Part shown: piece by piece, positions 29,315-60,445 of the stretch
How the letters are laid out: each line of letters begins with the position of its first letter
How positions within the stretch are numbered: the stretch's first letter is position 1
Origin: a phage
Direction: 5' to 3' (one strand)
Sequence record: PX418922.1
DNA: 64,000 nt
Made by a program: the position numbers and the translations under genes
Notes under the pieces: generated by a model
Databases searched by the model: none
The model's input: the letters and a program-made list of their open reading frames with translations, nothing else
What the model was told of the DNA's origin: nothing

Positions 29315-29317
29315 GGC

Positions 29318-29390: not shown

Positions 29391-29648
29391 ATGTTTTACA
29401 TCAAATTAAAAGGTCACGTGATCGCGTTCAAAGATAACGCTTTTTACAGATTAGCAAAATATGCGTTAATACATCCCCACTATGTTTATATAAGGGGGCG
29501 TGATGAAATAAATATTTTTGATCAAACAACATGCGAAAACATCGAGATCCGCAAGGTTGGCGTACGTGATTATCGTACATCTTTCTACCCTTGCAAGGAT
29601 TCAGCAAGTCTTTTTAAAGTATGCCAATTGTTGAAAAAAGGTGGTTAA
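29391..29648 (+). CDS. island small protein (85 aa)
   Basis: ORF track. Confidence 0.55.
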   Translation: MFYIKLKGHVIAFKDNAFYRLAKYALIHPHYVYIRGRDEINIFDQTTCENIEIRKVGVRDYRTSFYPCKDSASLFKVCQLLKKGG

Positions 29649-29649
29649 T

Positions 29650-30207: not shown

Positions 30208-30260
30208 CATATCGCCGCCACTGGCATAATATTTACCACGTAGGGCGGCAATGGTGCCGC
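30204..30260 (+). promoter_or_regulatory. island promoter + 5' leader hairpin (P4)
   Basis: TTGACA-N17-ATAATA-TTTACCAC-GTAG then GCGGCA-ATGG-TGCCGC. Confidence 0.55.
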
Positions 30261-30289
30261 TCATAGTGAAATTATGCAAGAGGTTTGCA

Positions 30290-30385
30290 ATGATTAATAA
30301 AGAAAATAGCTTGACGGTTGGAACGATTAACGCTATCATTCTTGCCGTTCCATTTTGGATTGTATTAGCGGCTATTATTTTCTAA
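30290..30385 (+). CDS. hydrophobic micro-protein (31 aa)
   Basis: MINKENSLTVGTINAIILAVPFWIVLAAIIF; only coding capacity downstream of P4. Confidence 0.35.
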   Translation: MINKENSLTVGTINAIILAVPFWIVLAAIIF

Positions 30386-30394
30386 AAAATATTC

Positions 30395-30455
30395 TTGACA
30401 ACGTTTTTTAATCTGATAAGATGTATCACATAGGGCGGCGGAATACTTCCCCGCC
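30395..30455 (+). promoter_or_regulatory. island promoter + 5' leader hairpin (P5)
   Basis: TTGACA-N16-TAAGAT-GTATCAC-ATAG then GGCGG..GGAA-TAC-TTCC.CCGCC. Confidence 0.55.
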
Positions 30456-30476
30456 AAAACAAAAAAGGGTAACACA

Positions 30477-30839
30477 ATGAGCAAGCAAATCAATACTATC
30501 ATGTTTAATCTGGTATCTTTCCGCGATGATATGAAAAATTTACCACGTGAAACGGTTGATATTCATGTTTCAGCTTATCGCGCCCTTATTGATATGTTAC
30601 CGCTAAAACGTGATCAACATGCCGCTAATATGATGCTTAATGCTATGCTTAAAAAGATGATTCAAACGGATCTCACCCTGGCGTATGAGTATCAAGGGCG
30701 CTTATATGCAACTTACAACAAGGCGGTACCTGGTCTGGGAAGTACCGAAGAGTTGCACGGCTTAAACCTGGATCAAAACACTTGGGATAGTATGCGCCGC
30801 GTTATGGTATGGGCCGAAAGCGGTAAAATTTACGAATAA
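30477..30839 (+). CDS. island small protein (120 aa)
   Basis: ORF track. Confidence 0.55.
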   Translation: MSKQINTIMFNLVSFRDDMKNLPRETVDIHVSAYRALIDMLPLKRDQHAANMMLNAMLKKMIQTDLTLAYEYQGRLYATYNKAVPGLGSTEELHGLNLDQNTWDSMRRVMVWAESGKIYE

Positions 30840-30844
30840 AAACG

Positions 30845-30902
30845 GTTGACATTGTTTAAAATTCTAGTATAGTTTACCACATAGGGCGGGAAGTGGTTTC
30901 CC
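30845..30902 (+). promoter_or_regulatory. island promoter + 5' leader hairpin (P6)
   Basis: TTGACA-N16-TATAGT-TTACCAC-ATAG then GCGGGAA-GTGG-TTTCCCGC. Confidence 0.55.
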
Positions 30903-30927
30903 GCCAACAATGAAAAAGGTTATCATC

Positions 30928-31293
30928 ATGGCTATTAATATTAATGTTTCCGCTTATGCTACCCTGGCTAACACGGCTAAAATTGAATTATCCAGCATTG
31001 AGGCGGTGCATATTAGCGCCCGTCGCTGGTTTCAACGGTCCTACGGTAACACATATTTTTCTTTAATGGTTGACGTTGAGATCGGCGGTAAACTGATCGA
31101 GGTGGTTAACGTTCCGTTTCAATATGGCTATGGTGATCATTTTGATACCGTCGCCCTAGAAGAGTTTAGCAAGGTTATCAACCTGGAAGGTAAAGAGTTT
31201 TCAAATTATGCCTACCTTTCCCGTTTTTGCCGTGACAATGGGATCACTGTATACAGTCATGCGAGCGATGTAAAACGTAAAAAAGATTTATAA
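30928..31293 (+). CDS. island small protein (121 aa)
   Basis: Second in-frame ATG chosen (AAAAAGG upstream); the first ATG abuts the hairpin. Confidence 0.5.
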   Translation: MAININVSAYATLANTAKIELSSIEAVHISARRWFQRSYGNTYFSLMVDVEIGGKLIEVVNVPFQYGYGDHFDTVALEEFSKVINLEGKEFSNYAYLSRFCRDNGITVYSHASDVKRKKDL

Positions 31294-31299
31294 AAAGCA

Positions 31300-31360
31300 T
31301 TGACAGCACGAATAAAAAGAGTAAACTGTATTACATAGAGAGCGGGAACACTTCCCGCCT
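31300..31360 (+). promoter_or_regulatory. island promoter + 5' leader hairpin (P7)
   Basis: TTGACA-N17-TAAACT-GTATTAC-ATAG then GCGGGAA-CAC-TTCCCGC. Confidence 0.55.
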
Positions 31361-31382
31361 CACTGAAAAAGAGAGAAAAATC

Positions 31383-31622
31383 ATGGCTAAATCTAAAATG
31401 TACAACGGTCACAAAAACAAAACTCATTGGAATGTAAGCCTTTGGATTAATAACGATGAATCGTTATACCGGTTGGCCCAAGATTTTATTAACGCTAATG
31501 CTAATCGTAATGATGCGGCGCGGGATATGATGCTTTTTCTGGAACAAACTGGACAAGATAAAACGCCAGACGGTTTCAAATATAGCACTACTGCGATCCG
31601 TGCCGCGATGGTTGGAATGTAA
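31383..31622 (+). CDS. island small protein (79 aa)
   Basis: ORF track. Confidence 0.55.
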   Translation: MAKSKMYNGHKNKTHWNVSLWINNDESLYRLAQDFINANANRNDAARDMMLFLEQTGQDKTPDGFKYSTTAIRAAMVGM

Positions 31623-31631
31623 TAAAAACAG

Positions 31632-31689
31632 TTGACAACGTTTAAAATTAGTGTAAGATGTATCACATAGGGCGGGAAGTGGTTTCCCG
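31632..31689 (+). promoter_or_regulatory. island promoter + 5' leader hairpin (P8)
   Basis: TTGACA-N16-TAAGAT-GTATCAC-ATAG then GCGGGAA-GTGG-TTTCCCGC. Confidence 0.55.
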
Positions 31690-31712
31690 CCAAAACAAAG
31701 AGATTAAAGATT

Positions 31713-31940
31713 ATGGCTATCAATATTGTTCGCGTATCCGGCACCGTTGGCACTTCCCAGGTTATTGCAGTTGTAACAAACAAAAAGATTAATGATGTAT
31801 GTGAGATCTTGAATAAGTGGGCTATTGCTAATTTTGGGGAATATGCAAGCGTCGAGTACATCGAATCCTACCAGGTGCCAACCATCAGCCTAACCGATCT
31901 CAACGTTGATCGCCTGTTATGCCTGGATGAATTGATCTGA
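31713..31940 (+). CDS. island small protein (75 aa)
   Basis: ORF track. Confidence 0.55.
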   Translation: MAINIVRVSGTVGTSQVIAVVTNKKINDVCEILNKWAIANFGEYASVEYIESYQVPTISLTDLNVDRLLCLDELI

Positions 31941-31949
31941 AAAAGATTG

Positions 31950-32006
31950 TTGACACCGGAAAGAAAAAGAGTAAACTGTATTACGTAGGGCGGCAATGGT
32001 GCCGCT
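31950..32006 (+). promoter_or_regulatory. island promoter + 5' leader hairpin (P9)
   Basis: TTGACA-N17-TAAACT-GTATTAC-GTAG then GCGGCA-ATGG-TGCCGC. Confidence 0.55.
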
Positions 32007-32030
32007 CACAACAAAAGAGAGATTATTACG

Positions 32031-32243
32031 ATGGCTAATATCCGCACACTGTTAAAAAATGCAAGTCAAGTTTTATTTTCAGATGACGAGTATTTCAATA
32101 AAGACATTACAGGCGTGAAGAATATCAAAGATGTAAAAAGTGTTATGGGTATATATTGCAATGTTAAACGTGTTGGAACGTTCGGTGATAAAGTATTGTA
32201 CCAATCAGGTGATTACAATTTTACTTTGACGATTATTTCATAA
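32031..32243 (+). CDS. island small protein (70 aa)
   Basis: ORF track. Confidence 0.55.
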   Translation: MANIRTLLKNASQVLFSDDEYFNKDITGVKNIKDVKSVMGIYCNVKRVGTFGDKVLYQSGDYNFTLTIIS

Positions 32244-32248
32244 AACGC

Positions 32249-32310
32249 TTGCAATACTGCAAAAATAAAGTAAACTGTATTACATCAAGGCGGCGGAATG
32301 GTCCACCGCC
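32249..32310 (+). promoter_or_regulatory. island promoter + 5' leader hairpin (P10)
   Basis: TTGCAA-N16-TAAACT-GTATTAC-ATCAA then GGCGGCGGA-ATGG-TCCACCGCC. Confidence 0.5.
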
Positions 32311-32334
32311 TAACAAAGAGAAGAGGAAAATATC

Positions 32335-32502
32335 ATGATCACTTTCGCTACCCGTGAAGCCGCTCGCAACGTTGCACGTAAAGTTAACGCCGCCAACCTG
32401 GGCGCTACTTTTAAAGCGCCTGTAAAAGATGAATCAGGAAAATGGATCTTCCCTGGTCTGCGTCACGCTGATAAGCTAGGCACTTTAAGCCTTAAAAAAT
32501 AA
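32335..32502 (+). CDS. island small protein (55 aa)
   Basis: Read manually (MITFATREAARNVARK...); AGAGAAGAGG upstream; shares MITFA N-terminus with the next gene. Confidence 0.4.
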   Translation: MITFATREAARNVARKVNAANLGATFKAPVKDESGKWIFPGLRHADKLGTLSLKK

Positions 32503-32505
32503 TCG

Positions 32506-32540
32506 TTGACTTTTCGTTATAGCGCCCATTATAAGGCGCT
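32506..32540 (+). promoter_or_regulatory. island promoter with variant hairpin (P11)
   Basis: TTGACT then hairpin AGCGCC-CATTATAA-GGCGCT; -10 element unclear. Confidence 0.35.
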
Positions 32541-32576
32541 ATAGAGAAGAGAAACCACTACTAACAAGGAAACATC

Positions 32577-32798
32577 ATGATCACTTTCGCTATTGTCGCC
32601 GTTGTCGCTGGTCAGGTTTACGTAAACGATACATTCACCACAGAAGACAAGGCCGCAGGAGACATAACCGCCGTTTACAATGAGTGCAAGGCAGTAGAAA
32701 GGATGTTAGCGCCTTGTATGTTAATGAGTGAACGCCAGGACGGGATAACAGTGTTTACTAACATTGAAACAGGGTACCAAATGGTAGTAACAAAATAA
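32577..32798 (+). CDS. island small protein (73 aa), hydrophobic N-terminus
   Basis: ORF track. Confidence 0.5.
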   Translation: MITFAIVAVVAGQVYVNDTFTTEDKAAGDITAVYNECKAVERMLAPCMLMSERQDGITVFTNIETGYQMVVTK

Positions 32799-32801
32799 AG
32801 C

Positions 32802-32858
32802 TTGACACGGATTTAATTTTCAGTAAACTGTTACACGTAGGGCGGGAATAGTTCCCGC
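32802..32858 (+). promoter_or_regulatory. island promoter + 5' leader hairpin (P12)
   Basis: TTGACA-N16-TAAACT-GTTACAC-GTAG then GCGGGAA-TAG-TTCCCGC. Confidence 0.55.
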
Positions 32859-32876
32859 TAAAAAGAGAGAAAGACC

Positions 32877-33230
32877 ATGAAAGCACAAAATGCAATTAAA
32901 GAGTACATCCTTGCCGCTATCGATTTTAATGATTACGGTATTACAACCGAAAAAGAGAAGATCGCGGAATTGATGCGCCGTTTTAATTCCGAGTACTGGT
33001 ACCCTGATAATCAATCACGTTTTAATTATAGTATTGTTAAAGCACTTGCATCATGGTTACAAGGCTTGCCATCAGATATTAATATAGCTTTCGAATATTG
33101 GGAAATTGATCGTTTGTTAACATCCTGGGGATACATTAAAGAGAATAGCAGCGATGATAAAATCCAACGAGAAAGGGAAAATTATTGGCTTTATATTGCA
33201 GGCGTGATCCTTGCTTGCTCTTATGAATGA
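32877..33230 (+). CDS. island small protein (117 aa)
   Basis: ORF track. Confidence 0.55.
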   Translation: MKAQNAIKEYILAAIDFNDYGITTEKEKIAELMRRFNSEYWYPDNQSRFNYSIVKALASWLQGLPSDINIAFEYWEIDRLLTSWGYIKENSSDDKIQRERENYWLYIAGVILACSYE

Positions 33231-33236
33231 TAAACC

Positions 33237-33289
33237 TTGACAATTTTACAAAACAGTTTAAATTAATAATATAGCGGCAATGGTGCCGC
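33237..33289 (+). promoter_or_regulatory. island promoter + 5' leader hairpin (P13)
   Basis: TTGACA-N16-TAAATT then GCGGCA-ATGG-TGCCGC. Confidence 0.5.
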
Positions 33290-33309
33290 TCATATAAAGA
33301 GGAAACAAA

Positions 33310-33456
33310 ATGAATACATCTAATCGCGCAGAAAAAATTCAATCTTCCAAGATCCGCAAGGCCTGGAATGAGGAAGTGATCCGCAAAGGCGACAAGCGCA
33401 ATAAAACAAAGCGCGGGAAGAGTGACAAATATAATTGGATGGATTTAGAGGATTAA
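33310..33456 (+). CDS. highly basic micro-protein (48 aa)
   Basis: Read manually (MNTSNRAEKIQSSKIRKAW...KRNKTKRGKSDKYNW); terminator follows. Confidence 0.4.
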   Translation: MNTSNRAEKIQSSKIRKAWNEEVIRKGDKRNKTKRGKSDKYNWMDLED

Positions 33457-33464
33457 CATAACAA

Positions 33465-33490
33465 GGGCGCACCAAGCGCCCTTTCTTTTT
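33465..33490 (+). terminator. intrinsic terminator
   Basis: GGGCGC-ACCAA-GCGCCC then TTTCTTTTT. Confidence 0.65.
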
Positions 33491-33511
33491 ACATGTAGAG
33501 GATAAACAAAA

Positions 33512-33697
33512 ATGACTTTAAACGAGCTTAAAACAGCCTATAACGCAACATTAAAAATAGCCGTGCGTTACCGTGACGAATACGGTTTTATTGCGCAGGG
33601 CGTGATCCTGGGCTTTTCTGACGATGGTTTGATCTATGTTGATGCACATCACAACAAGGTTAAACCGGAAAACGTTATCAGTATAAAATATCTTTAA
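33512..33697 (+). CDS. island small protein (61 aa)
   Basis: ORF track; GAGGATAA upstream. Confidence 0.45.
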   Translation: MTLNELKTAYNATLKIAVRYRDEYGFIAQGVILGFSDDGLIYVDAHHNKVKPENVISIKYL

Positions 33698-33703
33698 AAG
33701 TGG

Positions 33704-33760
33704 TTGACACCATAACCGGACCTGTTAAACTGTATTACATCAGGCGGGGAATAGTTCCCC
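33704..33760 (+). promoter_or_regulatory. island promoter + 5' leader hairpin (P14)
   Basis: TTGACA-N16-TAAACT-GTATTAC-ATCAG then GGGGAA-TAG-TTCCCC. Confidence 0.55.
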
Positions 33761-33783
33761 AACCATACAAAAAGGTAAATATT

Positions 33784-33990
33784 ATGATCACCGCAAAACA
33801 AGAAAAAATCATTATCGACGTTGCAGCCGTTGCCGCTATTGCTATTATTGGATCTTATTATGATACCCGTTTCCCGTCGGCTATGCATGAGATCGCCGCC
33901 GTTGCATCAGTTGGCGTGCTGTTTTACGTTGGTAAACGCTATTTATCACCAATGATTAACAAGCTGACACCGTGGAAAAATAAAGGTTGA
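33784..33990 (+). CDS. island small membrane protein (68 aa)
   Basis: Start moved downstream of hairpin; hydrophobic AAVAAIAIIG segment. Confidence 0.5.
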   Translation: MITAKQEKIIIDVAAVAAIAIIGSYYDTRFPSAMHEIAAVASVGVLFYVGKRYLSPMINKLTPWKNKG

Positions 33991-34041
33991 TCCTGTTTTA
34001 TATTGTGTTATAGTTATCGTGTAGGGCGGCAATGGTGCCGC
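33987..34041 (+). promoter_or_regulatory. island promoter + 5' leader hairpin (P15)
   Basis: TTGATC-N16-TATAGT-TATCGT-GTAG then GCGGCA-ATGG-TGCCGC. Confidence 0.5.
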
Positions 34042-34061
34042 GCCCCTTTGAGGATGCAATC

Positions 34062-34346
34062 ATGAGTAAAGCTAACACCGTGCTAATGTTTTCCCTGATT
34101 AATGATCCCGCTTACTTGTCCAACATGACGCAGGAGGGTAACACATTAACGGCAACATTCACCAATAAGCTTGACCGAGTGATCATCATCTCACTGAAAA
34201 CAGTTAGTAAAGGCTTTTACTCGTTAGCTTATCATTGGATCACTGATACCGATGAGACAAGCCAGGACTATAGCGCCCCTTTCCCTGAATCAATGGCACG
34301 GGAGATCATCGCCGCCGTTGTAAATGATGGTTTGTTTACTGCATAA
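34062..34346 (+). CDS. island small protein (94 aa)
   Basis: Start moved to ATG downstream of hairpin. Confidence 0.5.
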   Translation: MSKANTVLMFSLINDPAYLSNMTQEGNTLTATFTNKLDRVIIISLKTVSKGFYSLAYHWITDTDETSQDYSAPFPESMAREIIAAVVNDGLFTA

Positions 34347-34363
34347 ATAATTTAGAAAAAGGC

Positions 34364-34422
34364 TTGCAATCATTTTGAGATAGTGTATATTTAATTCATA
34401 GGGCGGCGGGAATAGTTCCCAA
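34364..34422 (+). promoter_or_regulatory. island promoter + 5' leader hairpin (P16)
   Basis: TTGCAA-N16-TATATT-TAATTC-ATAG then GGGAA-TAG-TTCCC. Confidence 0.5.
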
Positions 34423-34443
34423 AGCAAACGAGAGGATTACACG

Positions 34444-34563
34444 ATGAGCAAGTACACAGTAGAATACACGGTAGAGAATCCGGCAGTATCCGAAGGTAAA
34501 AAGATGACATTTGCCATCAGTATAATCGCTTTCGTTGTCACTATCTTATCAATCATCTTATAA
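34444..34563 (+). CDS. hydrophobic micro-protein (39 aa)
   Basis: Read manually (MSKYTVEYTVENPAVSEGKKMTFAISIIAFVVTILSIIL). Confidence 0.35.
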   Translation: MSKYTVEYTVENPAVSEGKKMTFAISIIAFVVTILSIIL

Positions 34564-34573
34564 GGTACACACC

Positions 34574-34735
34574 ATGAAAATAACAGACATTATCAAAGAG
34601 ATCGCCCTTGCCGCTGGCGTTGAAGTCGAGGAAGTGATCGCGCTCAATCTTACAGAAAACGATCTGCGCAACTATGAAGCGGAAAGCGTGAAAGCAAGCG
34701 GCGCGGTCCTGGTATATGATCCGGCTAACAAGTAA
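34574..34735 (+). CDS. island small protein (53 aa)
   Basis: Start moved to MKITDII... Confidence 0.4.
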   Translation: MKITDIIKEIALAAGVEVEEVIALNLTENDLRNYEAESVKASGAVLVYDPANK

Positions 34736-34744
34736 GGGGGTAAC

Positions 34745-34855
34745 ATGAATCCGAAAGATATGCAAGCATGGAAAGGGTACGACGATCTAAGCGCCTTGCG
34801 CAATAAGTCAAGCCGTAACTTTAGACGGTTGGAAGCAAAGAAAAAGAAAAAATAG
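34745..34855 (+). CDS. basic micro-protein (36 aa)
   Basis: Read manually (MNPKDMQAWKGYDDLSALRNKSSRNFRRLEAKKKKK); GGGGG upstream. Confidence 0.35.
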   Translation: MNPKDMQAWKGYDDLSALRNKSSRNFRRLEAKKKKK

Positions 34856-34856
34856 T

Positions 34857-34912
34857 TTGACAAGTCCGCCTAGTCTGATAATATGTATCTTGTAGGGCGG
34901 CAATGGTGCCGC
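34857..34912 (+). promoter_or_regulatory. island promoter + 5' leader hairpin (P17)
   Basis: TTGACA-N16-TAATAT-GTATCTT-GTAG then GCGGCA-ATGG-TGCCGC. Confidence 0.55.
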
Positions 34913-34933
34913 TCACAAGAAGAGAGAAAAATC

Positions 34934-35218
34934 ATGAAAATTACAAAAAGCCTAACTAATTATGCAGCACGTCGCGGATTATGTTTAACCGTTGAAAACT
35001 TAGGGAAAGAAGACTTTTTGTGTTTTTGGGAGCTTGAGAATGATTGCGAGTGGATGTTTTCTTATTCTATCTGCGAAGATCAAAACGGTTGTTTGTTAAC
35101 CTGGCGCGGTAATATCTATTTACCGGAAGAAATTAAAGAAGAGTTACCAGGTACGATCATGACAGAGAGACAGCTTAAGGAAGTGATCAATTTTGTAGGG
35201 CAAAACATTAAAAAATAA
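34934..35218 (+). CDS. island small protein (94 aa)
   Basis: Start moved downstream of hairpin; AGAGAGA RBS. Confidence 0.5.
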   Translation: MKITKSLTNYAARRGLCLTVENLGKEDFLCFWELENDCEWMFSYSICEDQNGCLLTWRGNIYLPEEIKEELPGTIMTERQLKEVINFVGQNIKK

Positions 35219-35219
35219 T

Positions 35220-35280
35220 TTGACAGCAGGCAAACAACGTAGTAAAGTTTACCACATAGGGCGGCGGAATGGTCCACCGC
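35220..35280 (+). promoter_or_regulatory. island promoter + 5' leader hairpin (P18)
   Basis: TTGACA-N17-TAAAGT-TTACCAC-ATAG then GGCGGCGGA-ATGG-TCCACCGC. Confidence 0.55.
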
Positions 35281-35303
35281 TCACAACAGAAGAGAAACAA
35301 ATC

Positions 35304-35474
35304 ATGATCCCGACTATGTTTTATGTATCGCGCAAAGGTCACAATATTTTTTGGTCTGAAGATTTAAATGAAGCTATGACGTTTGCCCGTGATCGTGTTG
35401 CTATCGGTGGCGTTAACATCACCGTAACCGATGAAAATGGCATTGAATACTATAACGGCGACGATGAAGAATAA
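35304..35474 (+). CDS. island small protein (56 aa)
   Basis: Start moved to MIPTMFYV... Confidence 0.45.
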   Translation: MIPTMFYVSRKGHNIFWSEDLNEAMTFARDRVAIGGVNITVTDENGIEYYNGDDEE

Positions 35475-35479
35475 TTAAT

Positions 35480-35512
35480 GAGGCGGGGGAGTATTCCCCG
35501 CCGTCAATAAAG
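35480..35512 (+). promoter_or_regulatory. orphan leader-type hairpin with no recognisable promoter
   Basis: GGCGGGGGA-GTA-TTCCCCGCC immediately ahead of the RBS of 35522. Confidence 0.4.
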
Positions 35513-35521
35513 AGGTAAATC

Positions 35522-35791
35522 ATGAAAATATCATTAGACGTTGCAATCAAGGCCATCGAATCCGGTTACACCCTGGTAAAAGATGATAAGGCTAAAACCG
35601 TGCACCACGTTAACAAAGAAACAGGCGAAAGCATGATCACATATAAAGCCGCCTACTTTCTCCAATCAGTAGCAGATCCGCGCGTACAACGCCAGGTTAC
35701 AGCGGCTATTGCTAAAAAATTATGTGCTTTACAGGGCACAAGTTTTAACGAGATCGCCCCGTGTTTTGACTGGTCGAGCTTGAAAAAATAG
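35522..35791 (+). CDS. island small protein (89 aa)
   Basis: ORF track. Confidence 0.5.
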   Translation: MKISLDVAIKAIESGYTLVKDDKAKTVHHVNKETGESMITYKAAYFLQSVADPRVQRQVTAAIAKKLCALQGTSFNEIAPCFDWSSLKK

Positions 35792-35792
35792 T

Positions 35793-35845
35793 TTGACAAC
35801 AATTATAAATCGGGTAGAATGTATTTCGTAGGGCGGGGCAATGGT
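35793..35845 (+). promoter_or_regulatory. island promoter with degenerate hairpin (P19)
   Basis: TTGACA-N16-TAGAAT-GTATTTC-GTAG then GGGCGGGGCAATGGTGCAACGCC. Confidence 0.45.
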
Positions 35846-35872
35846 GCAACGCCTACTAATGAGGGTAAAATC

Positions 35873-35977
35873 ATGTTAGAGAAAATTTTCACGGTTGTAG
35901 TAGTGGGCCTGGTGTTATCGGTTGGAGTGGTTGCAACTATGGCTAACATGATCCTATCTTCCCACGGTATTGGATAA
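35873..35977 (+). CDS. hydrophobic micro-protein (34 aa)
   Basis: Read manually (MLEKIFTVVVVGLVLSVGVVATMANMILSSHGIG). Confidence 0.35.
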   Translation: MLEKIFTVVVVGLVLSVGVVATMANMILSSHGIG

Positions 35978-35987
35978 GGTGAATCAA

Positions 35988-36203
35988 ATGATCACGAATA
36001 AGACAGGTAAAACAGAATTTTTACGCGCCTTGCAGATCGGCAAGCCTGAGATCTGGCATTGCACTAAATCCGCGCATAATGAAATGAAAGATTTTACCGC
36101 TACTTTACAACGTGTTAAAATATCTATCACACAGAAAAAAGCCTTGTTAGTAGTAGAAAACGAGATCCCGCAAACTATTATTATTGTCGAGCGTACAGCA
36201 TGA
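35988..36203 (+). CDS. island small protein (71 aa)
   Basis: Start moved from TTG to the in-frame ATG. Confidence 0.45.
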   Translation: MITNKTGKTEFLRALQIGKPEIWHCTKSAHNEMKDFTATLQRVKISITQKKALLVVENEIPQTIIIVERTA

Positions 36204-36586
36204 AAACAGAAATCATTATTGAAATCATCAACGGTTATAAAGAAGCCTTTATTTTTGCTGAATCAGCAAGGGATCATGAAGGTAATTTTATTGATAACTT
36301 AGACGATTATGATTTTTCTCCTAGCGTGGATCAACGGATCGCCCAGGATGTAACAGCCTTTATTAATGCTAATCTTGCCGCTATCTCTGAGGCAATGAGC
36401 GACGGCGCAACAGCCAACCAGATCGGGAATGATTTACATTTTACCCGTAACGGTCACGGCGTAGGCTTTTGGGATCGCCCTGAAATATACACCACTAACA
36501 CGGCGAACCGCCTAACCAATGCAGCTAAGTTTATGCCGAACGTGTCGGCTTACATTGGTGAAGATAATTTGATTTATATTGAATAA
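36200..36586 (+). CDS. island small protein (128 aa)
   Basis: ORF track; ATGA coupling. Confidence 0.5.
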   Translation: MKTEIIIEIINGYKEAFIFAESARDHEGNFIDNLDDYDFSPSVDQRIAQDVTAFINANLAAISEAMSDGATANQIGNDLHFTRNGHGVGFWDRPEIYTTNTANRLTNAAKFMPNVSAYIGEDNLIYIE

Positions 36587-36592
36587 AAAGTA

Positions 36593-36650
36593 TTGACACC
36601 GATCCCCAATATGGTACTATTTACCACGTAGGCGGGAAATGGTTTCCCGC
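36593..36650 (+). promoter_or_regulatory. island promoter + 5' leader hairpin (P20)
   Basis: TTGACA-N16-TACTAT-TTACCAC-GTAG then GCGGGAA-ATGG-TTTCCCGC. Confidence 0.55.
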
Positions 36651-36674
36651 CAGGTAATCAAAAAGGTAAATACT

Positions 36675-37064
36675 ATGCGCAACCTGGTTTCTGTTTCTAA
36701 CGTTGAAAAATTTCAATCTTTACAGGGTATCGTTAACAACGTAGCGCCTTTTTTAGTCAACGGCTTGATTGCAAAGATGAAAAATAAACATCATGCGGCA
36801 TGGTCTGCTTACTGCTTTGATAATGATGAAAAAGCGGCTGAAATGATGTTAAATATGCTGTTAGACAGTGTAGAATCATCTTTACCGGAAAACATCGCAG
36901 AAGAGATCACCTATCGTTATAATATGGCGATCACTTACCAGGAGGTTGCGCAATTTAATATGATGGACGATGACGAACAACAGGATCAGGAAATGTTTTG
37001 GGAGTATGCTGATCGTCAATCGGCTTTTGATGAAAAATTAGCGATGTATTATAACGAATATTAA
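36675..37064 (+). CDS. island small protein (129 aa)
   Basis: Start moved downstream of hairpin. Confidence 0.5.
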   Translation: MRNLVSVSNVEKFQSLQGIVNNVAPFLVNGLIAKMKNKHHAAWSAYCFDNDEKAAEMMLNMLLDSVESSLPENIAEEITYRYNMAITYQEVAQFNMMDDDEQQDQEMFWEYADRQSAFDEKLAMYYNEY

Positions 37065-37080
37065 TACACGGTAAAAGAAA

Positions 37081-37105
37081 GGGGCGCACTAAGCGCCCTT
37101 TTTTG
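37081..37105 (+). terminator. intrinsic terminator
   Basis: GGGCGC-ACTAA-GCGCCC then TTTTTTG. Confidence 0.65.
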
Positions 37106-37448
37106 TATTCTTTTTTCACGATGGAAACAACACGTAAAGAATAGGCGTAAAGGTGGCGTAAAACCATCTAAAACCGACTGTAACCGCTTAAACAAGGTAG
37201 GAATGATTAATCACCTTGCCAGGATGAAAAAGCCGTTATAAAGCTATCTAGAGCGTTTAAAGCACATAGGAAATAATTTGCTTTTTATCTTGCCTTTTAC
37301 CCTGCTTTTGATTATTATTATGGAACGGGCGGCACCTGGAGACAGGGGAAGATAATCACCGGAAGATCCCGCTATATATTGATAGCTAATACCTATTAAA
37401 CAACAAAACATCAAAGGAATAAACTATCAAATCTTTACAATTCTACCT

Positions 37449-37495
37449 ATTGACACCGGATCGCCCTTATACTAAGATGTATCACGTAGGGCAAA
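37449..37495 (+). promoter_or_regulatory. island promoter without clear hairpin (P21)
   Basis: TTGACA-N17-TAAGAT-GTATCAC-GTAGGGC; hairpin degenerate. Confidence 0.45.
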
Positions 37496-37524
37496 TGATT
37501 TTAAACGGTAAACGAGGAATCACC

Positions 37525-37908
37525 ATGAGCAATATCATCAACCTGGCAGCGACTGTAAACGGTAAAGACTTTAACGGCGCTGTAGACCGTGATCCTATGT
37601 GGTACTTGTCAGTGTTTAAAGGCGATCTGGTTGAAGTTAGAACAACCGAAGGGTATAGCGATGATTATAAATGCGAGATTCATTTACATAATTGGTACAC
37701 GGGTAAAACTTATGCGCTGAATCACGCGTTTATCGGAAAAATCGAATATCGTGAGATGATCGACGAAGAAACGGGGCAAGATTTTAGCGAAAACGTTTAT
37801 ATTCGTTCCGAGACATTAGCCGAACGTTTGATCGAGAAAATGAAAGCAAAAAATAAAATTAATTTATCTCATTGGATTGATATAACAAACGATCCAGCTT
37901 ATCAGTAA
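37525..37908 (+). CDS. island small protein (127 aa)
   Basis: Start moved to MSNIINLAAT... Confidence 0.5.
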   Translation: MSNIINLAATVNGKDFNGAVDRDPMWYLSVFKGDLVEVRTTEGYSDDYKCEIHLHNWYTGKTYALNHAFIGKIEYREMIDEETGQDFSENVYIRSETLAERLIEKMKAKNKINLSHWIDITNDPAYQ

Positions 37909-37924
37909 ATAACATTTCATACCA

Positions 37925-37950
37925 GGGCGCACAAAGCGCCCTTTCTTTTT
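37925..37950 (+). terminator. intrinsic terminator closing the island
   Basis: GGGCGC-ACAAA-GCGCCC then TTTCTTTTT. Confidence 0.65.
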
Positions 37951-39529
37951 GCCCGAACAATGTTGATAGATTCCGCCTATGGAAAACCGACACAGAACAA
38001 AACTGAATAAATAGCGGTATCAAGCTAATCAACCATTAAATGAATAACCATACCTCCCAGGGTAACAGGCTGTTAGAGAGCCATTTAAAGCGGTTAAAAT
38101 CGATCAACAACCAACAACAAACCATCAAAAACACCCTTTTACCTCCTTTCTAGTGCAATGATAACCATTATCATCTATCCATGTTTATCTATACAATATA
38201 AGTGCATAATTATAATGTTGATAATAGTTCGCAACAACTAACCAACAAACAACATAAAACAATAAGCAAACTAATCATAATCAAAGGAATAATAGCAAGA
38301 TGATTGATAACAACAAACAATCAAACCATGATGAATACTAAGCAAGATAACGATAACACGACAAAACAACCAACTAACGAACAATAACAAACGAAACCAT
38401 TAAAATAATAACTATTGCCATAATAGTGACTAAATGAAATCATTACAAAACGAATCATTCACAGAGTCATCATTAGCACGCTATGCCGGACACATAGCGA
38501 GCTAATAATAAGCCAACTACACCCCAACAATCATAACCATCGGTGATGGTTATTTCTTGTTACTGCGTAGCTTGCAATAATTGCAAGCGTAATGACGCTT
38601 ACACTTATTGCGCTGGCTTATTATTAGCATTATATGTAATTACCAAGATCATAACATTAGCGCAATAACAATAATCATTGTGGTAATTACGTAAGGAAAC
38701 AATTAGCATGGCAATAATTATGGGGCAATGGGAGGATGATTATCATCATTCCGATACATTGCACACTATGCACATAATAGAATAAAAAGCAATAATTTTG
38801 GGGGCGAAATGTTACCGCCACAGGCGGGAATGTTGAGCACTAAGAAAAGAGATAAACCTTAATCATGGGGGCGTAAATATCCGCAGGATTGCCAACGGCG
38901 ATCCGGTAGGATGTTGAGCATCTTCTCTTAAACGTAAATAAAATCAGAAAATTCTTGATTTATTTTAGTTTTTATGTTAATAAACGTTTAAATAATAATC
39001 ATTCTCATATAAATAATAGTCTGCTTGTCATGAGCGGGATTAGTTGACAATGTTCCGTCATATGATGAAGTTGCCAACCTATTGATAAATAAGTGTTTGT
39101 GTGATTTATAATCAAGTGGCCCACCTTGTCGCTACGTTGGCATAAGCCTTGCATAAGTCATTGAATACGAATGATAATTATTCTCATTCGCATGATATTT
39201 GGGAATTGTCGCTGCGTGGACCTGACGGCCCGAAAATTCGCGTTAAGCACTTCTTACGTATGCGCCATGATTTTTGCCATATGATATTGATTCTATTAGA
39301 TATTCTTGCCATGATTGCCATGAAACAGGGTGTCCCGAAATAATCTTTCCCCGTAGATATTTTGGGTTACTTTTTATACAAGAGTGGGGTGTCAAAAATA
39401 ATCGGTATATATGGGATAATTGATAGGAATCCCCTATGATAATTCGATTGTAATTCCCTGAGATTGATCGTATGATGTTGGTGATTGATGATTGCCATGA
39501 AAGATGGCTAACGATGAGAGGAGATTATC
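37951..39529. other. 1.6-kb non-coding, repeat-rich region with strand-skewed A+C content
   Basis: No ORF of 60 aa or more; CAACAA/ACAAAC low-complexity runs; palindromes; Fur-box-like sites at 38991-39010 and 39169-39189. Confidence 0.5.
38570..38588. repeat. 19-bp palindrome
   Basis: GCTTGCAAT-A-ATTGCAAGC, 9-bp arms. Confidence 0.6.
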
Positions 39530-47472: not shown

Positions 47473-47745
47473 ATGAATAAAGATCGGTTTCTTTCTTTAG
47501 TCGCGGAAGCTCCTTTTGATGTTCTTGGGGTGAGATTATGGAAAGACAGAAACTATGGGTTAGATGTTCAAACATACTCTCTTTGGTTGGTTGGGGAGCA
47601 CAGCTTAGATGAAAGCTTGTGCATGGGTAGGGATTCTCGTTCCCTCTGTTTAAAGTTCAGAAGCTTAGAACGCGCAAACAAAGAGCAAGAAAAACTAACG
47701 AGGTGGCTAAATGAAAACAAGCGCAAGGTTGATGGAGTTTTATAA
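47473..47745 (+). CDS. hypothetical protein (90 aa)
   Basis: ORF track. Confidence 0.45.
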   Translation: MNKDRFLSLVAEAPFDVLGVRLWKDRNYGLDVQTYSLWLVGEHSLDESLCMGRDSRSLCLKFRSLERANKEQEKLTRWLNENKRKVDGVL

Positions 47746-47932
47746 AATTTATCTAGCATGGATTGATGTTGGTGCTCCTGATGGTAAACCTTTTCGGCGG
47801 GATTGACTTTGGGTCATTGTTTGGCAAACATTGAAGATGTTGTGATCCAAAGGGTTGTTTTAGAGAAAGAGGCTATTTGAGAGAAGACGGCACAATACTT
47901 AAATATAAAGATTAACCACAAAGGAGATAGAT

Positions 47933-48232
47933 ATGCAAGTTGAAGACCTGATTAAAATTTTGAATGAAGCTAAAGAGAAAGGTGCTATCAAGGACTGGAA
48001 ACGTGAAACAAGTGAAGACCTATCTCATTGTTGCCGAGAGTTTTACATCGAAGGTATTGCTGACGATCATTATACTATCGAATGGTATATCAACTTAATG
48101 ACCCTTAAGCACGGTTCATTTGAGATTTGGTTTGATGACATTGATGTAAATGGTTTTCATCCTGGCTATAAAATCGCTATGCAGTTATCTTATCGTAGAG
48201 AAGTTGTAGCACATTTGGGTTTACATAACTAA
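47933..48232 (+). CDS. hypothetical protein (99 aa)
   Basis: ORF track; AAGGAGATAG upstream. Confidence 0.5.
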   Translation: MQVEDLIKILNEAKEKGAIKDWKRETSEDLSHCCREFYIEGIADDHYTIEWYINLMTLKHGSFEIWFDDIDVNGFHPGYKIAMQLSYRREVVAHLGLHN

Positions 48233-48242
48233 GGAGAAAAGA

Positions 48243-48566
48243 ATGCAAGCAGTTGTTAACGAAGCTATTATGAACTTATCCTTCTTGTTAGCTGGTTTAG
48301 GAGGTGTTCTCATAGGTTTGGCTCTTATCTGGTGTATTCGTCGATTAATCGGGTACCGACAAAAAGGTGTTTCATGTTTTGTATCTTACAATTTTACAAC
48401 TGCTTACAGCAATGAAGTTGGATCTGGTAATGCTCAAGCATTTTTACCAACATATCCTCCTACGGTGGAAGATATTCGAAACTTGGAAGTACAACTTATG
48501 GGACTAGGTGATAACTATACATCTCTAGTTATTCAAAATATTTTTCGACTAAAACAGGGGGCGTGA
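48243..48566 (+). CDS. membrane-anchored hypothetical protein
   Basis: N-terminal hydrophobic helix. Confidence 0.5.
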   Translation: MQAVVNEAIMNLSFLLAGLGGVLIGLALIWCIRRLIGYRQKGVSCFVSYNFTTAYSNEVGSGNAQAFLPTYPPTVEDIRNLEVQLMGLGDNYTSLVIQNIFRLKQGA

Positions 48567-48779
48567 ATGAAGGTACATTACCCTCATCCATTTGATCCTA
48601 AAAACAAAGCCGTAATTCTTCGTCAGTGGCAACGGGTTTGTCGTACTAAATGTCCAATCAATAGCCCACACAATGTAGACAAGGACTATCTTGGGACATT
48701 TGTTGAATACACTTACATAGACAAAAACAAGCGTAAACAGCATGTCGAGGAATACTGCTTAAGAGTAGAATGGCTGTAA
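48567..48779 (+). CDS. hypothetical protein (70 aa)
   Basis: ORF track. Confidence 0.45.
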   Translation: MKVHYPHPFDPKNKAVILRQWQRVCRTKCPINSPHNVDKDYLGTFVEYTYIDKNKRKQHVEEYCLRVEWL

Positions 48780-48791
48780 ATAATAAATACC

Positions 48792-48820
48792 TTGACAAGT
48801 GTTTATTCGTTTTGTAAAGT
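48792..48820 (+). promoter_or_regulatory. sigma70-like promoter
   Basis: TTGACA-N17-TAAAGT ahead of the recombinase gene. Confidence 0.5.
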
Positions 48821-48849
48821 GAGAATACAGCAATGGTTTAGGAGTGGTT

Positions 48850-49521
48850 ATGAAAAAGTTTGTTGTTTACAGTCGTCTTTCTAAACAGAAAAAAGGTGAG
48901 GCACAATATGGTATGGAGAGCCAAGAGAATGATATCCGTTACTTCTTAGACTCTGTGCCTGATGCGGAAGTTATTGGTCAATTTTCTGAATACTATTCGG
49001 GTAAGGGCGATTGGAAGCAACGTAAGGAACTGGTTAAAGCGGTTGAAATGTGTAAAGCTACCGGAGCAACTTTATTGGTAGCTAAAGTTGACCGCTTGGG
49101 TCGTAACAACGCCTCCGTAGCAACTCTTCTAGAAATGATCGATGTTAAGATAGCCATTATGCCAGACGCAGATAAAATGGTTATACAGCTTCTGTCTGTT
49201 CTGGCTGAACAAGAAGTTAGAGGTATTGCTGATCGTATTAAAAAGGGTCTTGCTGTAGCAAAAAGCAAAGGTGTTTTATTAGGCAGTGCTAATCCTAAAA
49301 CTGCCGCTGCACGTAGAAAAGGAAAAATGGAATACAACTCTGTTAAAGCAGACGCTTTTGCAGAGACATTCCGTGAACGCTTGGAGATCCTTAGAGATTT
49401 AAATACACCTTACAAAACTATTGCTGAAAAATTCAATAGTAAGAAAATAGCAACAGCACGTGGTGGTAAATGGGATGCTAAAACTGTTTCTCGTTTGTGT
49501 GCCAGACTGAACATTAAATAG
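48850..49521 (+). CDS. serine recombinase (resolvase / invertase family)
   Basis: N-terminal YSRLSKQKK (catalytic Ser region) and LLVAKVDRLGRN motif; start moved to ATG after AGGAG. Confidence 0.55.
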   Translation: MKKFVVYSRLSKQKKGEAQYGMESQENDIRYFLDSVPDAEVIGQFSEYYSGKGDWKQRKELVKAVEMCKATGATLLVAKVDRLGRNNASVATLLEMIDVKIAIMPDADKMVIQLLSVLAEQEVRGIADRIKKGLAVAKSKGVLLGSANPKTAAARRKGKMEYNSVKADAFAETFRERLEILRDLNTPYKTIAEKFNSKKIATARGGKWDAKTVSRLCARLNIK

Positions 49522-49529
49522 GAGAGGAT

Positions 49530-49952
49530 ATGAAACAAGAAAATGAATCTGTAGATCACTTAATCATGCTGTCAGCCCTTTTTGCCGGATGGGACGTATT
49601 TTTTGAAAATTTGTTCAATTCTGCTACAGATGGTTCCGATTTTATGCGCCAGTTTAAACGACGAACTGTTGAGGACTATGCTTTCTATTCAGGTCGGATT
49701 GAAAAAGGTTACGAAGATACAAATACAACACTCACCATTAAAGTTTTAGATGTGATGTTTAGTGTTATAGATGCTATCGACGAAAGTCTTCCGATCCTAG
49801 ACAATTGTAATACGAAAGCCTATGTTTACAAAATAGCTCGTGCTTATGTGTCTGCAAACAGTTGTCTTCTTTCCACCCAGATTGCCGTGAACAATCTTGC
49901 CAACTTGTTTGATGAAGGAGAAACTTTTTATGACAATCGATTTGAAGTGTAA
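49530..49952 (+). CDS. hypothetical protein (140 aa)
   Basis: ORF track. Confidence 0.5.
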   Translation: MKQENESVDHLIMLSALFAGWDVFFENLFNSATDGSDFMRQFKRRTVEDYAFYSGRIEKGYEDTNTTLTIKVLDVMFSVIDAIDESLPILDNCNTKAYVYKIARAYVSANSCLLSTQIAVNNLANLFDEGETFYDNRFEV

Positions 49953-50295
49953 GAGGATTCTTTTAGATTTCTATAATAATTGGTTAGAACACCTCCGGCT
50001 CTTTCCAAGAGAAAGTGGTTACGCTGATGTTGGCTTATGCCGAGGTCTACGTATGTATATAAGTGGTGAATTTCGGGCCGAGCATTCTTTAGCATATTCT
50101 GTTTATGGTATGCAATTAGCCAGTTTTGAAAACGCTGGCTTAGATACAACTTTCCCATTTAACACAGCAAAATCTTTTGAGCAAGAGTGTAAGGAAAAAC
50201 GTTGCATGTTTAATGAAAAACGTGTACAGTGGGTTAAGGATCGAGTTAAACAACTGGAACAAGAGTTGGATTTCTTCTATGATGAGGCAGAATAA
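49930..50295 (+). CDS. hypothetical protein, paralog family A copy 3
   Basis: Start moved to ATG after AAGGAG; family A pattern. Confidence 0.45.
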   Translation: MTIDLKCKRILLDFYNNWLEHLRLFPRESGYADVGLCRGLRMYISGEFRAEHSLAYSVYGMQLASFENAGLDTTFPFNTAKSFEQECKEKRCMFNEKRVQWVKDRVKQLEQELDFFYDEAE

Positions 50296-50567
50296 TGGAT
50301 AGACAAACCTTAAAAACAATGGCAGATGCCACTAATTCCCCGTACTTTGAAAAAGTAAGTAAATTGGTAGCTAAAGCCGCAGAGGAAGGATATTATAACA
50401 TAAACATCCATAACCCAAGTCTTATACTAGAAATGCCAAGTGATAAGAAGATACAAGAGAGTATCTGTGAAGGTATTGTTAGTTACTGGCGCGAGCGTGG
50501 GTGTGGTGCAAACATGGCTTTAGACAGTGCAAACATTGTAAGATATATAAATATTTCTTGGGGGTGA
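50295..50567 (+). CDS. hypothetical protein (90 aa)
   Basis: ORF track. Confidence 0.5.
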   Translation: MDRQTLKTMADATNSPYFEKVSKLVAKAAEEGYYNINIHNPSLILEMPSDKKIQESICEGIVSYWRERGCGANMALDSANIVRYINISWG

Positions 50568-50608
50568 TTTTATGATTCAATGCACTCATATCCAAATTAC
50601 TTGGAGAG

Positions 50609-51184
50609 ATGAACTTTACCATTTTGGGACAATTTACTGTAGGGGAAACATACCCTGTCATTAAACATAATCCTAACATCGCAAACTTTGATAGGATGGT
50701 TCTTGTTGAGGACGATCTGGGTCAAACTTATTCTTTAGATCTAAAATATCCGTTTTCTTACGGCTACGATTGGATCGTTACTTTTGAAGACGTGGAGGAA
50801 AATAAAACAATGAACGAAAAAAATTCTTGGTATTATCGTTGTGAACTGCCGCCAGTAGGTGAAAAGGTTATCTTTGTTCCTGATTTGGAAAGATATTCTT
50901 GGGACAGTTCTTATTCTATTCCTAAAGAAGGCACCGAAGTTGAAGTTATTGCACATCGCACAACTTCGCATGGTAACGATGTAGCAGTTGTTTTCTGGGA
51001 TGATGAAGGTGCTGCTTGTGCAGGTGGCTTTGTTGCAGGTAATTTTGAACCCCTGCCAGATCCTTTGAAGGAGGCAATTTTAGGCGTAGCTTCTTTTGGA
51101 CTCTCTTACACATCTGCACAAGAGATCGTAGAAGGTATTTTAAACGGTACCGTTCCAAACGAAATTTTTAAACAGATTAAATAA
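50609..51184 (+). CDS. hypothetical protein (191 aa)
   Basis: ORF track. Confidence 0.5.
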   Translation: MNFTILGQFTVGETYPVIKHNPNIANFDRMVLVEDDLGQTYSLDLKYPFSYGYDWIVTFEDVEENKTMNEKNSWYYRCELPPVGEKVIFVPDLERYSWDSSYSIPKEGTEVEVIAHRTTSHGNDVAVVFWDDEGAACAGGFVAGNFEPLPDPLKEAILGVASFGLSYTSAQEIVEGILNGTVPNEIFKQIK

Positions 51185-51235
51185 TAGTTGCACCCCGTTC
51201 TGCGGGGTGTTATTGTATATGTAAAGGAGGCGCTA

Positions 51236-51574
51236 ATGTATTACACTGAAGACTACATATTGTATAACTTTTTTAAAGGTTGGTTGAAATGGGCGGAACA
51301 AGCTCCTGTCGGAGATTGTGTTTTTCCTTGGGATTCTCGTCAAGGCTTGTGTCGTTGTTTGGAAGATTGGCTTATAACCACAAACTACAATTCAGAAACT
51401 AAGAAATCTACATCAAACAGATTAAAAATGTTGTTTGAAGAAGATGGTTTAGATCCAATTTATCCTTTCGGTGAGGAAAGTTTCCACAATGGTCTTTTCC
51501 TTGGCACTCAACATTATGATAAAGATCGTGTAGATTGGGTAAAAGAAAAGGTAGCACAGTATGAATGGGGTTAA
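51236..51574 (+). CDS. hypothetical protein, paralog family A copy 4
   Basis: Start moved to ATG after AAGGAGG; family A pattern. Confidence 0.45.
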   Translation: MYYTEDYILYNFFKGWLKWAEQAPVGDCVFPWDSRQGLCRCLEDWLITTNYNSETKKSTSNRLKMLFEEDGLDPIYPFGEESFHNGLFLGTQHYDKDRVDWVKEKVAQYEWG

Positions 51575-55687: not shown

Positions 55688-55711
55688 GAACCCGCTTCGG
55701 CGGGTTTTTTC
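55688..55711 (+). terminator. intrinsic terminator
   Basis: CCCGC-TTCG-GCGGG then TTTTTT. Confidence 0.65.
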
Positions 55712-60420: not shown

Positions 60421-60445
60421 AAAAAACCCGCCGAAGCGGGTTATT
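60421..60445 (-). terminator. intrinsic terminator
   Basis: Minus-strand CCCGC-TTCG-GCGGG then TTTTTT. Confidence 0.6.

Follow-up and report, generated by a model that had tools for sequence, protein, structure and literature searches.

The closest described counterparts of the recombinase analysed here are gp053 of phage phi92 and its orthologues in the subfamily Stephanstirmvirinae, which belong to the same family; the Phapecoctavirus copies do not differ, whereas the phi92-type copies lie elsewhere in the genome, on the opposite strand, and their C-terminal domain has diverged. With the Tn3 and gamma-delta resolvases and with Sin, the phage protein shares the catalytic fold and residues, the E-helix, the size class and a C-terminal helical DNA-binding domain, but the identity is only about 20-25%, and the phage gene stands without a transposase, a transposon or a plasmid context. 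The multi-subsite res of the Tn3 family (about 90-120 bp, beside the gene) is lacking at the phage locus with its 70-bp intergenic region, and the C-terminus of the phage protein is longer than the short HTH of the resolvases and resembles the domain of large serine recombinases. The invertases Hin, Gin, Cin and Pin (e.g., Mu G segment, P1 C segment) are likewise phage-borne small serine recombinases under the same annotation label; however, a close sequence relationship is missing, and for the two ~26-bp inverted sites that flank their segments no counterpart was found here in searches for repeats of at least 16 nt, nor is there an invertible tail-fibre segment beside the gene. The large serine integrases Bxb1, phiC31 and TP901-1 have the same extended S..Q spacing, and their recombinase domain aligns, over its first part, with the start of the phage C-terminal domain; yet the phage protein has 223 aa against 450-600, is devoid of the zinc-ribbon and the coiled-coil, and comes from a virulent phage. 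IS607-type transposases carry an N-terminal MerR-like domain and a C-terminal catalytic domain, whereas the phage recombinase has its catalytic domain at the N-terminus (residues 5-142). Cre of P1, a site-specific tyrosine recombinase encoded by a phage, is no integrase; it acts in the cyclisation and dimer resolution of phage DNA. The analogy to Cre-lox is functional only, as the two enzymes belong to different families, P1 exists as a plasmid prophage and the searches of the phage examined here found no lox-like site.

The window, i.e., the whole stretch of 64,000 nucleotides that was analysed (record PX418922.1), belongs to Phapecoctavirus, phAPEC8-like virulent E. coli myoviruses of ~150 kb in the subfamily Stephanstirmvirinae. 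The recombinase region is 98-99% identical to that of more than 60 Phapecoctavirus genomes, with one of which the window is colinear apart from indels, and about 60 Phapecoctavirus records in GenBank contain the recombinase protein at 100% identity. The labels given to this identical protein are ‘serine recombinase’, ‘DNA invertase’, ‘resolvase’ and ‘recombinase family protein’, and some records mislabel it as ‘methionine ABC transporter ATP-binding protein’. The SKA64 paper mentions it as ORF101 and guesses at a role in keeping concatemers as single genomes (PMC10282059), and no functional study or experimental data on it were found in the literature searched. The gene and its annotation were already known from GenBank; the relocation of its cassette, the split rates at which its domains evolve, the missing cis site that its relatives possess and the mapped genome ends are new. 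The gene is located in a region of small ORFs, ~9.6 kb inside the left end of the linear genome, and comprises the following features.

48792 to 48820, plus strand: sigma70-type promoter of the recombinase cassette (TTGACA, 17 nt, TAAAGT; 10/12 matches)
48840 to 48844, plus strand: ribosome-binding site AGGAG, read directly from the sequence
48850 to 49521, plus strand: serine recombinase CDS, 223 aa plus stop (ATG at 48850, stop at 49519-49521)
48850 to 49290, plus strand: catalytic domain plus E-helix, residues 1-147 (PF00239, invariant residues, AF2 model, Foldseek)
49174 to 49266, plus strand: E-helix, residues 109-139 (AF2 model secondary structure)
49291 to 49518, plus strand: C-terminal helical DNA-binding domain, residues 148-223 (weak PF07508; model helices 149-219)

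A listing of ORFs puts the start of the recombinase at a GTG (48844) upstream of the ATG at 48850; the GenBank relatives use this ATG, from which the CDS is 672 nt long. Intergenic space around the gene is short, 70 bp on its upstream side and 8 bp on its downstream side, and the small phage ORFs next to it in the window match no Pfam family other than DUF7202. The gene had been predicted to carry its own promoter, and the analysis agrees: position 48792 is the first base of the TTGACA -35 hexamer, and the site at 48792-48820 is the best promoter-like site between 47400 and 50400, where such sites are not enriched as a class (7 found against 8.7 expected from shuffles). An UP-like AATAAAT stretch lies 5' of it, as at the other early promoters of this phage, and the AATAAAAA-TTGACA layout is common to other early promoters in the window. 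Both the -35 and the -10 of the recombinase are kept in phiWec181 and L017 although the upstream gene differs, and in phiWec181 the conserved promoter falls within the upstream ORF.

The ORF is a small serine recombinase of the resolvase/invertase type, as originally predicted from its catalytic-serine N-terminus and its DRLGR-type motif. Pfam PF00239 (Resolvase) matches residues 5-142 at E=5.2e-18 and 66 bits against a curated cut-off of 23.3, PHROG 125, labelled ‘DNA invertase’, matches at E=3e-32, and the sequence matches in the PDB are Tn3 and gamma-delta resolvase (E~3e-6). The catalytic-serine motif reads YSRLS, with the codon of S11 at 48880-48882, and the DRLGR motif corresponds to D81-R85 (49090-49104) within VDRLGRN. 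All of the gamma-delta residues Y6, R8, S10, D67, R68 and R71 have their equivalents (Y7, R9, S11, D81, R82 and R85), and across an alignment of 45 sequences, with relatives down to ~31% identity among them, Y7, R9, S11, Q25, R58, D81, R82 and R85 do not vary. The AF2 model (mean pLDDT 88) has a mixed alpha/beta catalytic fold followed by the long E-helix, and Foldseek matches it best to the catalytic domains of Sin, gamma-delta, TP901-1 and Bxb1, with a probability of 1.00 for Sin, gamma-delta and TP901-1. With all catalytic residues present and a confident model, the recombinase is apparently active.

The C-terminal domain is of another kind. Pfam at E<=1 gave only PF00239 and a weak match of PF07508 (‘Recombinase’) to the 30 residues 187-216 (E=0.003, below the curated cut-off), and HTH_7 was absent; PF07508 is precomputed for five of the relatives (P0073, P0074, P0076, P0082 and P0087), and the domain is similar to the helices with which the ‘Recombinase’ domain of large serine recombinases begins. 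The protein aligns over its full length with a clade of ~220-aa phage and plasmid proteins (93 at E<=1e-10, mostly of 213-250 aa), in which A192, N196 and T202 are nearly invariant C-terminal positions. The two parts of the protein differ greatly in how fast they evolve. When the window is set against phiWec181, identity is 95.2% over the 147 aa of the catalytic domain but only 35.5% over the 76 aa of the C-terminal domain, and every pairwise comparison made showed this imbalance; the C-terminal type of the window recurs in three metagenomic relatives (P0002, P0003 and P0004).

Orthologues are 67-75% identical in phiWec181/188 and Citrobacter Tr1 and 55-57% identical in the phi92-like Justusliebigvirus and Klebsiella relatives (phi92 gp053, 57%), and large virulent Vibrio phages, some ICP1 isolates among them, have distant ones (30-39%). 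The ICP1 copy is in a block missing from the reference gene numbering and is carried by at least three 2017 DRC isolates. Schickermooser matches the recombinase in two pieces, at 80% identity. The gene occurs in about as many records as the conserved 19500-25000 region, so that it is near-core in Stephanstirmvirinae, present in essentially all members (phAPEC8-like, phi92-like and Klebsiella relatives); with a protein identical in 63 records, it is under purifying selection. The setting had been described as lytic-looking, with no evident repressor, integrase or att-like site, and the phage is indeed lytic and devoid of a lysogeny module. Among 5,426 complete E. coli genomes there was no match to 48567-49952, consistent with a strictly virulent life style. 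As the protein is of the small resolvase/invertase type and these phages are absent from the 5,426 genomes, we conclude that it is not an integrase.

We compared the position of the gene across genomes. A whole-genome translated comparison revealed one Phapecoctavirus and one Justusliebigvirus genome to be completely colinear except for the recombinase gene and an inverted module of ~1.5 kb; one further opposite-strand match was a paralogue. In phi92-type genomes the recombinase gene lies between gp054 and gp052, and in phi92 and the Klebsiella phage it is part of a DNA-metabolism block with methyltransferase, DprA-like, RdgC-like, ligase and RNR genes. The homologues of gp054 and gp052 are directly adjacent in Phapecoctavirus, with the recombinase cleanly absent between them. 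On both sides, the recombinase has different genes next to it in the window, in phiWec181, in Tr1 and in phi92; the CDS moves with nothing but its promoter region of ~70 nt, and the ribosome-binding site of the next gene comes within a few bases of the stop. These alignments indicate that the promoter and the gene are a self-contained cassette.

A gene whose locus and strand changed between genera, whose neighbours differ per lineage and which is accessory in ICP1 could be a mobile cassette, selfish or hitch-hiking, or else a vestige, and contribute nothing to the life cycle of the phage. We consider this improbable, given that neither terminal repeats nor flanking sites enabling self-movement of the cassette were found, that essentially every member of the subfamily has kept the gene with all catalytic residues invariant, and that no disrupted copies were noticed, the two-piece match of Schickermooser apart. 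The mobilisation of cassettes by the recombinase, which was among the functions proposed at the outset, is likewise without evidence. The sole indel next to the gene is a deletion of 1.07-1.38 kb just upstream, relative to other isolates, with its junction at 47796-47805; as a product of the recombinase it was rejected, because it lies between 10-bp direct repeats (GGCGGGATTG), a case of microhomology and not of site-specific recombination.

No cognate site and no invertible segment for the recombinase were found by our searches. In the 160 nt upstream of the gene, the best 12-2-12 dyad was the following.

48782 to 48807, no strand assigned: imperfect dyad AATAAATACCTT-GA-CAAGTGTTTATT, 26 bp, 9/12, centred on the -35

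As a crossover site this dyad was rejected. With up to 3 mismatches allowed, the window contains it a single time, it is kept neither in phiWec181 nor in three relatives with the same type of DNA-binding domain (L099, L100 and L101), and its left arm is ordinary UP/-35 sequence of the early promoters of the phage; the dyad is probably due to chance. A multi-subsite res beside the gene was not found, and the upstream sequence beyond the promoter is not conserved among relatives. An inverted-repeat pair does flank the gene (48377-48414 and 50513-50550, 38 nt, 74% complementary), and it was rejected as the ends of an invertible segment, its arms lying in the coding sequence of neighbours that are absent from other lineages and the 63 genomes compared showing no variant in orientation. 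In a whole-genome scan for strong 12-2-12, 14-2-14 and 16-2-16 palindromes, only terminators and AT-rich runs were obtained, none of them common to two genera.

The labels of GenBank and PHROG would suggest a DNA invertase that flips a phage segment between short inverted sites far from the gene, like Mpi of Bacteroides, and among the NCBIfam matches, all far below threshold, are Mpi-family invertases (E=7e-5). A possible substrate could be seen in the ~1.5 kb module (~20918-22455 in the window), which is found in both orientations within Justusliebigvirus, the segment itself being ~97% identical between the two types. This module is a divergent unit of a gp217-N-like gene on the minus strand and homologues of gp216/215/214 on the plus strand, and it is inverted in the window relative to phi92; one orientation is that of phi92, alia, muut, arall and others, the other that of PD06, VEcB NC_052663, ZYD and others. 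However, no inverted repeats were found at its ends, its left breakpoint falls exactly at the gp213 start and the gp214 stop, its flanks are mosaic with microhomology at the junctions, and phi92 gp217 is a fusion of the first gene of the module with the gene on its right flank. The inversion looks like illegitimate or modular recombination, and the module was left unlinked to the recombinase. Its ORF 20918-21394 was also considered as DUF2829-like, which was dropped as it has no Pfam match.

Further evidence speaks against a distant invertible segment. A BLAST self-comparison of two whole genomes from two genera revealed, apart from terminator hairpins and paralogues, no inverted-repeat pairs of at least 16 nt within 20 kb in either genome, so that the full-genome search for inverted-repeat recombination sites proposed initially yielded no such pair. 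All Phapecoctavirus records (63 or more) have one orientation, and the flipped orientation around the recombinase was seen in none of the 63 Phapecoctavirus genomes that span 47500-51000. Also, Hin and Gin chains are absent from the PDB sequence matches at E<=1e-3, as is HTH_7 from those of Pfam. We regard the invertase reading as improbable, and the control of an invertible segment is the least supported of the three functions put forward by the original prediction.

The ends of the linear genome were also considered. From the annotated 343-bp repeat of phi92 and the ends of GenBank records, the direct terminal repeats, ~330 bp long, were mapped to ~38917-39244 of the window, and 13 nt inside the repeat there is a 20-2-20 imperfect palindrome. 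With a gene that is early and near the left end, it is conceivable that the recombinase circularises the incoming genome between sites in both terminal repeats, in the manner of Cre-lox. This palindrome was nevertheless rejected as a lox-like site: it is not a palindrome in phiWec188 or in the Klebsiella phage, it does not co-vary with the domain type, and the window and phiWec188 have almost the same sequence there despite their different DNA-binding domains. Other palindromes in the terminal repeat are odd-centred (9-1-9), match the Fur-box consensus and are unrelated to the recombinase locus, and they were rejected as well. Rfam found nothing in 27400-39400. Circularisation is the least likely of all the readings weighed here and, in our judgement, very unlikely.

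The relatives of the recombinase present a different arrangement. Plasmids commonly carry full-length relatives (35-40% identity, 97-99% coverage), and those of 5.7-6.4 kb from Klebsiella, Marinovum and Synechococcus have little in addition except replication and partition genes. On a 5-6 kb replicon, the usual job of such a recombinase is multimer resolution. The K. aerogenes plasmid has a 34-bp palindrome (16-2-16) that ends 34 bp before the recombinase gene, and in six viral contigs (L036, L039, L045, L055, L083 and L094) a conserved palindrome of ~40 bp (ATACAAA..TAACG-NN-CGTTA..TTTGTAT) is found 20-70 bp upstream of the gene, in a single copy per locus. The gene context in two distant relatives (L088 and L029), with terminase and defence-like neighbours, is uninformative on the role. 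These loci show that members of the ~220-aa clade do rely on a simple site, present singly and close to the gene. No conserved equivalent of the upstream palindrome was found in the lineage of the window, and it appears that the Stephanstirmvirinae lineage has lost, moved or changed the adjacent-site arrangement.

The failure to find a cis site, when distant relatives possess one directly before the gene, would be expected of an enzyme aimed at non-self DNA, i.e., an early host-takeover or counter-defence enzyme that recombines, inverts, excises or breaks sites of the host chromosome, a prophage, a satellite or a co-infecting phage. The position of the gene among small early ORFs behind an early-type sigma70 promoter fits such a function, as does the ICP1 copy in its block outside the reference gene numbering, and, between close phages, a catalytic domain 95% identical beside a DNA-binding domain 35% identical is the pattern expected when the target changes. 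On the other hand, PADLOC gave no match, the literature searches found no such role, and the near-universal presence of the gene in a subfamily that infects different genera suggests a role internal to the phage. We rank this reading second and consider it possible but unlikely. Less likely again is its more specific form, a weapon for host takeover or counter-defence with swappable DNA-binding domains, breaking or rearranging sites of the host, prophages, satellites or rival phages; if true, it would account both for the missing cis site and for the turnover of the DNA-binding domain beside a near-identical catalytic domain.

Resolvase-type action on replicating phage DNA is the reading that we rank first, tentatively and as rather less than probable, because of the plasmid relatives, the gene context in phi92 and the core-gene status; some likelihood is left for roles other than those weighed here. 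Multimer resolution was among the functions initially suggested, and it is the most plausible of the three, the full-length relatives on 5-6 kb plasmids favouring a resolvase-like role, if with low confidence; the part that did not find support is the site. The missing paired sites do not contradict this reading because a resolvase needs only one site per genome, and for the same reason, one site per genome copy being enough, to count the lack of paired sites as a refutation, as initially proposed, is too strict. Against it stand the failure of our searches to find the candidate site in this phage and the linear virion genome with its short terminal repeats, circle-based replication having no support here; moreover, a target outside the phage that changes would account for the fast divergence of the DNA-binding domain no less well than an unchanging site in the phage genome.

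Host RNA polymerase would transcribe the recombinase early from the sigma70-type promoter. By analogy with the family, dimers of the recombinase would bind a short dyad site, and two site-bound dimers would synapse into a tetramer, in which Ser11 would break both strands of each site with a stagger of 2 bp and subunit rotation by 180 degrees would exchange the partners. Under the resolvase reading, the reaction would be of the resolvase type (deletion or resolution), and its partners would be copies of a site that each genome unit of the replicating phage DNA carries once, such that circular dimers may be resolved, or monomer circles freed from multimers, early in infection.

The analysis has a bearing on the therapeutic use of these phages as well. 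Screens of therapeutic phages flag any recombinase as a possible sign of lysogeny, and phAPEC8/phi92-like phages are common therapy candidates. A whole subfamily of virulent phages has kept a catalytically intact site-specific recombinase for which no target could be recognised. With a constant catalytic core and a DNA-binding domain that changes fast, these recombinases might also serve as a natural collection of variants in specificity.

Across the whole-genome comparison, and leaving the recombinase gene aside, we found a single inversion, a divergent gene module whose orientation in phAPEC8-type genomes is opposite to that in genomes of the phi92 type.

Window 20918-22455: divergent gene module, about 1.5 kb
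L011 2160-3771: counterpart in a comparison locus
L012 2128-3081: counterpart in a second comparison locus

Within Justusliebigvirus the module was found in both orientations, and the segment is about 97% identical between them. Its breakpoints are gene boundaries, no terminal inverted repeats were found at its ends, and phi92 gp217 is a fusion that arose at the module junction.

Relatives carry a further 1.07-1.38 kb, with as many as five small ORFs, that is absent from this isolate. The deletion junction (window 47796-47805) is a 10-bp direct repeat, GGCGGGATTG, which shows that the event was microhomology-mediated. The recombinase region is flanked on both sides by small ORFs that are paralogues with a common RVxWVK motif at the C-terminus, and the family includes the gene downstream of the recombinase in the relative phiWec181.

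Window, ending near 44435: RVxWVK-motif ORF
Window 49897-50295: RVxWVK-motif ORF
Window 51188-51574: RVxWVK-motif ORF

In several GenBank records (MW175890, OR352955, OR062524, NC_052662, and others), the label 'methionine ABC transporter ATP-binding protein' sits either on the recombinase or on a gene that falls within the matched region of 3.5 kb; any such label placed on the recombinase is an annotation error.

In distant relatives, a single conserved palindrome lies directly upstream of the recombinase homologue, and these palindromes are likely the crossover sites of the respective recombinases.

Viral contigs L036, L039, L045, L055, L083, and L094: palindrome of about 40 bp, ATACAAA..TAACG-NN-CGTTA..TTTGTAT, 20-70 nt upstream of the homologue
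L097 4323-4356, 5.8-kb K. aerogenes plasmid: 34-bp palindrome (16-2-16)
L016, ICP1 isolate 2017_DRC_82, record 18717-19472: recombinase homologue, 30% identical

The ICP1 homologue is situated between GP30 and GP41 in a gene block that does not bear the reference 'GP' numbering, indicating that it is accessory in ICP1.

We also noticed repeated elements elsewhere in the window. Many of the small early ORFs are preceded by copies of a composite repeat (at least 11 in all), in which a promoter is directly followed by a conserved hairpin and then an RBS; these copies are similar to the promoter-early-stem-loop elements known in T4-like phages. Two identical terminator hairpins lie 4.7 kb apart at a strand-switch region, and Justusliebigvirus has the same pair.

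Window 28700-37500 (+) and 7081-7157 (-): composite repeat, with sigma70-like promoter (AATAAAAA..TTGACA, 17 nt, TAAGAT/TAAACT), GC-rich hairpin GGGCGGCAATGGTGCCGC, and RBS
Window 55689-55710 and 60421-60442: terminator hairpins, each a 22-nt palindrome, AACCCGCTTCGGCGGGTT with a run of T or A

A segment of about 328 bp, window 38917-39244, is probably the phage's direct terminal repeat: the annotated 343-bp repeat of phi92 aligns to it, and several GenBank records begin at 38917 or stop at about 39244. Its left boundary, TGTTG|AGC, is conserved. Just left of it lies the best-conserved non-coding stretch across genera (window 38440-38640), which had no match in Rfam and may act as a packaging signal or encode a structured RNA. 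This stretch holds two hairpins or palindromes, the first of which shows compensatory changes in phiWec188, a phi92-like phage, and the Klebsiella phage.

Window 38469-38509: first hairpin or palindrome
Window 38574-38611: second hairpin or palindrome

Near-perfect palindromes of 23 bp, TAAATGATAATCATTCTCATTTA, cluster in two places, a large non-coding region rich in repeats and the interior of the probable terminal repeat, and Justusliebigvirus keeps the same two clusters.

Window 27963-28050: three copies in tandem, with a period of 29 bp
Window 38157, 38991, and 39170: further copies

These palindromes match the E. coli Fur-box consensus with 3-4 mismatches to the 19-mer, and they could serve as elements of iron-dependent control, or else as a phage operator or iteron.
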